In this document: piece after piece, positions 57,611 through 59,129 of the stretch | Layout of the letters: the number at the start of each line of letters is the position of its first letter | Position numbering within the stretch: the stretch's first letter is position 1 | Source: Eledone cirrhosa | Lineage: Eukaryota | Reading direction: 5' to 3' | Assembly (NCBI GenBank): GCA_964016885.1 | Contig: OZ024741.1 | Coordinates: forward strand, 141,422,001 to 141,486,000 | Length of the DNA: 64,000 bases | Position numbers and translations under genes: made by a program | The notes under the pieces: model-generated | What the model was told of the DNA's origin: nothing | Databases searched by the model: none | Seen by the model: only the letters and a program-made list of their open reading frames with translations

Positions 57611-58218
57611 TAAGAGACGTAAGATAAGAAAATTATAAAATTAACTTACTTACTAAAATATCACTTCCAACTAATTAGTTTCTGGAATGGAGTAGATACA
57701 TCTTCCGAAGAAGGTGTGGTGAAACATCCCGTCATCAGGAAAGTCTATTCTCATATAAGTTTCCAGGCAAAGCGAGGACTCTGGAAGCATTGTGGTTCAA
57801 TGCATGGGGTTGCAGAACAATAATATAAGAGACGTAAGATAAGAAAATTATAAAATTAACTTACTTACTAAAATATCACTTCCAACTAATTAGTTTCTGG
57901 AATGGAGTAGATACATCTTCCGAAGAAGGTGTGGTGAAACATCCCGTCATCAGGAAAGTCTATTCTCATATAAGTTTCCAGGCAAAGCGAGGACTCTGGA
58001 AGCATTGTGGTTCAATGCATGGGGTTGCAGAACAATAATATAAGAGACGTAAGATAAGAAAATTATAAAATTAACTTACTTACTAAAATATCACTTCCAA
58101 CTAATTAGTTTCTGGAATGGAGTAGATACATCTTCCGAAGAAGGTGTGGTGAAACATCCCGTCATCAGGAAAGTCTATTCTCATATAAGTTTCCAGGCAA
58201 AGCGAGGACTCTGGAAGC
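57611..58218 (-). repeat. Tandem 215-bp units x about 2.8, each with an HHR (first at 57663-57744)
   Basis: taagagacgt at 57611, 57826 and 58041. Minus strand: actttc CTGATGA c-gggatg...cattcc-a GAAA ctaattag TT ggaagt. Confidence 0.88.
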
Positions 58219-59129
58219 TTATTAAAAAATAAATCAGTGAATAGGAAATAGCAAAGCGTGGACTTACTTCCTAGCCATTGAAAAAATCACTGCCTCTGTG
58301 TCTTATTGTTCTGCAACCCCATGCATTGAACCACAATGTTTTTAAGACAAAACCTATATATTTGCTAGCATCGATATGCATTTGTTTGTATATATATGTT
58401 ACTAGATATAAATTCTTTATTATATATATATATATATATATATATATATTTGAATTGGCAGTATCGGTAGAAGGTCGGACGCCATGCTATGTATACATAC
58501 ACACACACACATATATATATATATATACGCACACACATATATATATATATAAACACACACATATATATATATACAGACACACATATATATACGCATATAT
58601 ATATACACGCACATATATATATATACGTATATACACACACACATATATATATATATATATACACACATATATATGTGTGTGTGCGTGTGTGTTTGTCTGT
58701 TTTGCTCTTATATAACTCATTTGCACGGGTTAAGTAAATAGTGGCTACATCTGATTAAACTCAACGAACCTGTACTTCATAAGACGTGGGATGGTGAATG
58801 GTGAGGTGTGAGGTGGGGTAGAATGGAGCATGGAAGCTATCTATTTTCAGGTAGGCTGACTAACAACTCAGACATTAATGGCAAAAATAACGTACAATAC
58901 CATTAACTGAAAATAGAAACCTCGACGTAGTTGGCGCAGCAGACATATCGTTTGCTCTTCAGTGTACAGCAAAGATAAATGAATAACTAAATTGATTTCT
59001 GAATACATCTTAGCTGAATGTATTAACACATATCTAATCTGAGAATGTAAGATGGTGTATCTGCTTCATTGATCAATCATCAGTTTCATACGTGCCATAG
59101 TAGTGTGAAGACCTGCAGGATTTATTTAA

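Follow-up and report, generated by a model that had tools for sequence, protein, structure and literature searches.

Three identical 215-bp hammerhead units in a (TA)n tract of Eledone cirrhosa and their proposed origin from the 3' end of a Penelope-like element (PLE)

A short tandem of hammerhead ribozymes with an inverted arm, set in a (TA)n tract, raises the question of which kind of element it belongs to and how its copies were multiplied. The window (the whole stretch analysed, 64 kb of AT-rich animal DNA, rich in microsatellites) was compared with itself at an offset of 215, which showed that positions 57608-58218 hold 2.84 copies of a 215-bp repeat without a single mismatch at the 396 positions compared (57608 to 58003, each base against the one 215 further on). 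The array consists of three complete ribozymes and two internal junctions, and the third unit lacks its final 36 bp (+ strand). An earlier reading made from the letters only (hereafter, the sequence-only reading) had recognized three apparently identical 215-bp units in the span 57611..58410; the repeat is confirmed by the mismatch-free period, but the element extends slightly past that end, to 58420, giving an insert of 813 bp. The features of the locus are as follows.

57459..57612, no strand: left (TA)n target tract, into which the untailed 3' end of the element (site 1) runs.
57608..57788, minus strand: U copy 3, the 3'-most in ribozyme sense, a 181-bp PLE-like terminus with a hammerhead and without a tail.
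57663..57744, minus strand: type I hammerhead, C3 at 57738, predicted cut between 57669 and 57668.
57788..57823, minus strand: tail (A') of U copy 2, 36 bp, with a terminal 6-bp hairpin that has an A/C-rich loop.
57823..58003, minus strand: U copy 2, same sequence as copy 3.
57878..57959, minus strand: type I hammerhead, C3 at 57953, predicted cut between 57884 and 57883.
58003..58038, minus strand: tail (A') of U copy 1, 36 bp.
58038..58218, minus strand: U copy 1, the 5'-most, identical; its start is the base of a 6-bp-plus hairpin.
58093..58174, minus strand: type I hammerhead, C3 at 58168, predicted cut between 58099 and 58098.
58219..58302, minus strand: Y, a unique 84-bp segment upstream of U copy 1.
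58303..58338, plus strand: first part of the inverted arm, the 36-bp tail in opposite orientation, starting no more than 1 nt from site 1.
58339..58420, plus strand: X', the unique 82-bp continuation of the inverted arm, with a long hairpin fold, ending in (TA)n.
58421..58449, no strand: right (TA)n target tract.

Taken in the ribozyme's sense, the left arm consists of Y (84), U (181), tail (36), U, tail and U, followed by (TA)n, and the right arm reads, on the + strand, tail (36) and X' (82), 118 nt together, again followed by (TA)n. The two arms stand head-to-head with their 3' ends outward, both abutting (TA)n. The 36-bp tail is present on two U copies and in the inverted arm and is missing from the third copy; as the sequence-only reading had noted for about 36 nt at the internal junctions, 57788-57823 and 58003-58038 are exact reverse complements of 58303-58338 (36/36). 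The right arm opens with exactly the piece that is absent from the third unit, and the overlap between the arms is about 1 nt. When 58303-58420 is un-inverted, the locus becomes Y, exactly three direct units and X', with unique flanks on both sides. Because the flipped right arm completes the unit, the 36-bp 'fold-back' is the tail of the third copy, split off at the U/tail boundary, and, as an unusual detail, the inverted arm stops no more than 1 nt from the start of the other arm, as if one RNA had been primed twice. Tail and U share a single G at their junction, and both edges of the 215-bp unit sit at hairpin bases. No second copy of U, Y or X' was found within the 64-kb window.

Each U copy carries a type I hammerhead on the minus strand, with CUGANGA and GAAA boxes, an NUH site and the type I stem order. 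It consists of a 6-bp stem I, CUGAUGA, a 49-nt stem II region that is closed by 6 bp and contains a UUCG-capped inner hairpin, GAAA and a GUU cleavage triplet, with predicted cuts after 58099, 57884 and 57669. Stem III is a perfect 10-nt palindrome (A15.1 to U16.1); because position 17 is U, the palindrome grows to 12 nt and A14-U17 pairing becomes possible. A descriptor requiring at least 5 bp in stem I, at least 3 bp in stem II and a palindromic stem III matched the window eight times (three matches in the array, five in other elements) and matched none of 100 block-wise dinucleotide shuffles of the window, and by this comparison the hammerhead motif of the array is real. No Rfam hammerhead match was obtained at the gathering score across the window or at E<=10 locally, and the Rfam microRNA-type matches were microsatellite noise. 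The sequence-only reading had called the ribozyme canonical, which is too strong a word in view of the U at position 17, the 49-nt stem II region, the missing Rfam match and a C.A mismatch at 10.1/11.1, which adjoins the core with a G-C pair one step outward.

The mismatch is shared by other hammerheads of the window. A 1x1 mismatch at the base of stem II occurs in the motifs at 19259, 15051, 48146, 53351, 57140 (37349 by eye) and 57738, as U.U, A.A or C.A across unrelated families, and the hammerheads at 9817, 38063 and 20330 have a bulge plus G-C form as in the 2014 description. Since it recurs in other window families, the 10.1/11.1 mismatch looks like a shared PLE variant rather than decay. 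PLE hammerhead variants reportedly cleave as dimers according to Lunse et al., whose account may already describe the 10.1/11.1 mismatch variant. The PLE-associated variants described by Cervera and de la Pena (2014, PMC4209133) resemble the array hammerhead in their oversized stem II, the extra base after the CUGANGA box and a palindromic stem III suited to dimer folding, and were reported to have low activity even as dimers; they differ in a conserved G10.1-C11.1 pair next to the core, where the array has C.A and an extra A before GAAA. The axolotl HHR_Amex2, with a U.U mismatch at the base of stem II, still cleaves and circularises (PMC7229834).

The element resembles a PLE terminus in its 3'-near hammerhead (the predicted cut lies about 60 nt from site 1, close to the element's 3' end), its optional tail, its inverted arm and its microsatellite target. 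Craig et al. (PMC8557442) describe partial tandems, 5' inverted copies, a tail of 30-40 bp and microsatellite or (TA)n targets as general for PLEs, and tandem pLTRs of about 200 bp are an ordinary PLE structure; in Adineta Pen2a, 218-bp pLTRs occur with a 181-bp inverted pLTR and a 31-bp tail (Arkhipova et al., PMC3846280). With the PLE pseudo-LTRs and partial tandems of Adineta vaga Pen2a and Anolis Poseidon PAc, the array shares a unit of about 215 bp, a type I hammerhead, a 30-40 bp tail on some copies, a head-to-head inverted arm, an A+T-rich or (TA)n target and intact ribozyme sites carried into DNA. It differs from them in having no coding body, in having three short copies with one 5' truncation point instead of one truncated and one long copy, and in an inverted arm that is the extension alone, without overlap with the other arm. 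The sequence-only reading had interpreted the unit as a hammerhead plus part of the 3' tail at a fold-back PLE end, and this interpretation matches both the other hammerhead and PLE ends of the window and the published PLE anatomy. The sequence comparisons thereby support the description of the 215-bp unit as a putative PLE-like 3' terminus of 181 bp that bears a hammerhead and is followed by 36 bp of 3' tail.

Other inverted elements in the window provide a local comparison. The set comprised eight such elements, seven from the self-search and one added by eye. In seven of the eight, one arm terminates at or close to a microsatellite and its partner extends a further 37-131 nt (37, 41, 43, 56, 96, 97 and 131 nt; the 37-nt case is less clear, as its opposite arm also continues for 13 nt), and the remaining one, the element at 53 kb, is symmetric. 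The extension is shared by a further copy at 14864 and 47960 (41/42 identical), at 24195/54134 (87%) and at 21003, 10066 and 38306 (77-83%); since a further copy carries the extension in all three comparable families, the extensions are element sequence. By analogy with these families, the 36-bp tail would likewise be encoded by its element. Three other elements have extensions of 96-131 nt that end in (TA)n, and the 36-bp tail and the full extension of 118 nt fit this local pattern.

The members of this neighbourhood are diverse. At 14864-19405 lies a decayed PLE whose RT-like and GIY-YIG frames are interrupted by stops; its hammerhead is at 19259, its inverted 5' copy measures 879 bp and has a 41-nt tail, and a third short copy with the same tail lies at 47960-48190. 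In its frame at 17875-18891, the C-terminus matches GIY-YIG with a score below the Pfam cut-off. Ranked by identity, the first named homolog of the frame belongs to Octopus sinensis (77% over 57% of the query), which makes a cephalopod source likely; bivalves supply the remaining named ones, and RT and GIY-YIG domains occur in many homologs. Given these homologs and the sub-cut-off match, endonuclease-positive PLEs are present in the genome. Immediately to the left of the array, 56866-57320 is a separate fold-back element that is not related to the 215-bp unit; its 151-bp arms share 93-95% identity, its hammerhead (57140) has an A.A mismatch at 10.1/11.1, and a partial relative lies at about 29560-29660. 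Further head-to-head inverted elements lie in microsatellites at 20125-21060, 24195-24582, 25995-26681, 34287-37541, 37684-38346 and 53177-53919, most of these six with hammerhead-like cores and one-sided 3' extensions, so that PLE ends are dense for 64 kb. A 63-bp inverted terminal copy inside the element at 53 kb (53631-53693) is a partial precedent for a very short inverted arm. At 49230-52965, (TA)n holds a head-to-tail array of about six units of 603-611 bp with a near-uniform pairwise identity of 97.4-98.7%, in which no hammerhead core and no Rfam or Pfam match was found, and which looks like a one-step tandem insertion. As this 611-bp array has no recognizable hammerhead, (TA)n-embedded tandems in the window need not be PLE ends.

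No RT/GIY-YIG coding parent of the array was found in the 64-kb window. The sequence-only reading had presumed a parent PLE with the array's terminus. Two candidates in the window, the fold-back element at 56.9-57.3 kb and, at about 14.9-19.4 kb, the coding PLE, were rejected as parents because their hammerheads differ and blastn aligned neither of them with the unit. An exact 22-nt match in prokaryotic genome contigs was dismissed as chance, as the upstream core is lacking there, and a phage collection gave no match to the array. Because the window contains neither a parent nor a second copy of U, Y or X', it is from the layout that we infer PLE parentage.

How, then, did the insert arise? 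We regard it as probable that the array is a PLE partial tandem formed by re-initiation at the tail site plus one further duplication, in a very young, protein-less insertion. A PLE 3' end that codes for no protein would have been inserted into a (TA)n tract with both 3' ends outward, from an RNA whose native order would be Y, U (with the hammerhead), tail and X'. Priming would have come from both ends of the nicked (TA)n, with the PLE enzyme supplied in trans or working on a truncated transcript. For the left arm, the reverse transcriptase would have started at the U/tail boundary (site 1); for the right arm, the other DNA strand would have been primed further downstream, at the end of X', with copying restricted to X' and the tail, which would have yielded the 118-nt inverted arm. 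The 215-bp unit could have been produced when a cDNA cut short at the 5' edge of U was joined to a new cDNA begun at the end of the 36-bp tail, and the tail/U junction would be the usual product of pLTR formation, in which extension of a shortened cDNA begins at the start site of the tail. Since the two internal junctions do not differ, the junction was most likely formed once and then repeated; the third copy may have come from a local unequal exchange between the 181-bp copies, or may already have existed in the donor locus. If the array were transcribed, neighbouring ribozymes could pair through the palindrome, cut weakly and release 215-nt pieces. The sequence itself shows the anatomy, the ribozyme motif and the likeness of the layout to the other PLE ends of the window; the order of priming, the origin of the third copy and any transcription or cleavage of the array are steps that we infer from this one locus.

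Several of these steps have published counterparts. Frangieh et al. (PMC11167929) reported that two internal RT start sites bound the PLE tail, in an AC-rich stem-loop, that both DNA strands are extended and that uncleaved RNA is the main template. The last point agrees with the present locus: as the insert spans three intact cut sites, its template was uncleaved at these sites. The arrangement also recalls twin priming of L1. There, the element RNA is primed from both ends of the target, and the inverted segment that results is bounded on its inner side by the second priming site. Double priming on element RNA and an inverted segment would be common to both; twin priming concerns LINE-1 and its poly(A) end, whereas priming at PLE tail boundaries and a (TA)n target are proposed for the array. 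Against the partial-tandem reading, two identical truncation points require an extra, unobserved step, and the arms overlap by about 1 nt here but by 76-879 bp in the seven inverted pairs of the self-search. The missing parent and second copy within the window, the weak support for Y as native upstream sequence and the 611-bp array without a recognizable hammerhead speak against it as well.

Folding energies, which leave out tertiary contacts, were calculated for RNAs of one to three units. The active monomer fold of a one-unit RNA is 4.0 kcal/mol less favourable than the free ensemble; for a two-unit RNA, the corresponding gap is 11.6 kcal/mol for the double hammerhead and 18.5 kcal/mol for two monomers, and in the minimum-energy structure the palindromes are paired over 12 bp, including the cut-blocking A14-U17 pair. 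With Y and three units, any one active site costs 8.0-9.2 kcal/mol, and the inter-unit site (8.0-8.8) is only slightly cheaper than the monomer site (9.1-9.2). With tertiary contacts ignored, these energies moderately favour dimer over monomer action, and they suggest that weak cleavage is to be expected. The sequence-only reading had assigned the palindromic stem III to the type that works as dimers; this is plausible and moderately favoured by folding, but the gap to the monomer is slight in the trimer. The isolated 87-nt ribozyme folded no better than shuffles (z 0.32). The type I hammerhead has a fold energy of -16.5 kcal/mol, under the -5 cut-off of Li et al., in a structure that is not the active fold. 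As regards loop 1-loop 2 contacts, the 49-nt stem II region is unlike a canonical 4-bp stem, and Mytilus retrozymes are without most of these tertiary contacts (PMC7229834).

A tandem of this kind might instead be a retrozyme. Cervera and de la Pena (2020, PMC7229834) defined metazoan retrozymes and proposed PLEs as their mobilisers and source, and a PLE origin for the retrozymes of animals has since been published (Li et al., bioRxiv 10.64898/2026.07.22.740005). In the latter study, 24/57 Xenopus retrozyme families match known elements, nearly all of them PLE termini, most families have no more than seven units, and one of nine tested dimers cleaved; the invertebrates in its main text are insects and an anthozoan only. 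By its sequence, the array would count as a non-LTR retrozyme under the published bioinformatic definition, and it may work like one. Li et al. (2026) require two or more tandem units in succession, every one with its own complete type I hammerhead, as is the case here, and the unit (215 bp, GC 36%, non-coding, no frame of 150 aa or more) lies within the retrozyme limits of about 150-450 bp and GC <50%. With regard to dispersal, the array was found at one locus within the 64-kb window, where a target site duplication is unreadable within (TA)n. Like the retrozymes of Acropora (220-245 bp), Mytilus (350-390 bp) and axolotl (330/350 bp), it is a head-to-tail tandem of a size in range, with one type I hammerhead per unit, GC <50%, no coding capacity and a short palindromic stem III. 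Unlike them, it still has an inverted arm and PLE-type flanks of unique sequence, its hammerhead combines a long stem II with a C.A pair at the base, and it is known from the sequence of one locus.

The foremost alternative is that the insert is a copy from an established non-LTR retrozyme family, whose tandem self-cleaves and circularises and whose circle is reverse-transcribed into (TA)n by a PLE enzyme. The size and GC content within the published range (PMC7229834) and the perfect unit identity, which is the expectation for one circular template, speak for this, as does the folding of the 215-nt circle, which is somewhat better than that of shuffles (61% paired versus 55%; z -1.9, 10/300 equally good); the axolotl retrozyme hammerhead cleaves and circularises despite its mismatch at the base of stem II (PMC7229834). 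We nevertheless consider this origin unlikely. The array starts exactly at the tail boundary and not at a random permutation point, it was found at only one locus in 64 kb, and the minimum-energy structure of the circle lacks the active hammerhead fold, for which the cost in the trimer is 8-9 kcal/mol. Moreover, neither Y nor X' would be part of a 215-nt circle, which speaks against an origin from a circle alone, and both are present at the positions expected of a linear precursor. The proposal in the sequence-only reading that the array is an intermediate between a PLE terminal repeat and a retrozyme goes beyond the evidence: the window contains no parent or second locus, and the unique flanks favour a linear, PLE-type integration over a circle-derived one.

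It is also conceivable, though very improbable, that the 36 bp are host target DNA, with 58303-58420 as a pre-existing flank whose first 36 bp were copied inverted between cDNAs by template switching at a staggered break. The inverted copy does start no more than 1 nt from the U boundary, X' has no second copy in the window, and Craig et al. attribute PLE tails to endonuclease-mediated resolution (PMC8557442). Against this, the extension is element sequence in 3/3 window families with a comparable second copy, three other elements have extensions of 96-131 nt ending in (TA)n (compared with 118 nt here), and Frangieh et al. map the tail onto the element's RNA (PMC11167929).

Equally doubtful is the proposal that the whole 813-bp insert came from one RNA in one event, by repeated copying of a bounded 215-nt stretch of template. 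One PLE reverse transcriptase would copy the distal extension up to site 1 from one target strand, and another would start at site 1, stop at the hairpin at the 5' edge of U and reset to the hairpin at the tail end. If true, this would amount to telomerase-like reiterative copying by telomerase's closest relative, and to the birth of a retrozyme-competent array in one step without an RNA circle; a second product of reiterative copying could then be seen in the nearby 611-bp array, whose six copies in (TA)n are related in a star-like way.

That the copy number is an assembly artefact, with two or more than three real U copies made identical by consensus polishing, is the least credible explanation, being suggested by 0 mismatches over 396 positions (against 1-9% between the arms of other inverted pairs in the window and about 2% between the 611-bp units) and by the long microsatellites on both flanks, but opposed by a window without Ns and by the six-copy 611-bp array, which was resolved with distinct units. 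At least two U copies are likely real, because the tail/U junction is a novel join that would be absent from a single-unit allele.

As a probable PLE partial tandem, the array adds to the hammerhead-bearing PLE-end tandems that have been catalogued in many animals, and it fits a known route from PLEs to small ribozyme repeats; a literature search that lacked most subscription papers found no octopus report of such a tandem or of a retrozyme. Its value is that of a clean, mutation-free test case in which parent flanks, tail and junctions are still readable. It could help to separate three routes to retrozyme arrays, namely local duplication, rolling circle and reiterative reverse transcription. 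Such a comparison bears on the mechanism by which PLEs form their tandem and inverted ends (PMC8557442, PMC11167929).

The segment Y is probably, on weak evidence, native upstream sequence. Y and U have a 14-nt motif in common (13/14 identical, at 58197-58210 in a hairpin loop of U and at 58251-58264 in Y, minus strand; 23/1000 shuffles equally good), and co-folding of Y with U was not significant as proof of a native Y (154/1000 shuffles). The motif resembles the L3 loop of HDV-like ribozymes, and the remaining HDV fold is missing. An HDV-like ribozyme in Y was rejected by comparison with the HDV consensus: an L3-like loop and a possible P1/P2 were seen by eye, and P1.1 GG, P4 and the catalytic C were absent. 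Rfam gave no match to an HDV-type ribozyme in Y. The end of Y (58219-58267, minus strand) has the look of a short intron, with a GT donor-like site, a branch-point-like motif and a T-rich run; an AG lies exactly at the Y/U boundary and a second AG just before stem I. This likeness to the splice consensus is an unscored one. Back-splicing as the origin of the unit junction was rejected, since a GT-AG join would lose the G that is kept there and fails by one base. Outside the insert, short interspersed repeats flank the array at 58450-58491 and 57323-57436, each with several further copies in the window, and are probably SINE fragments.
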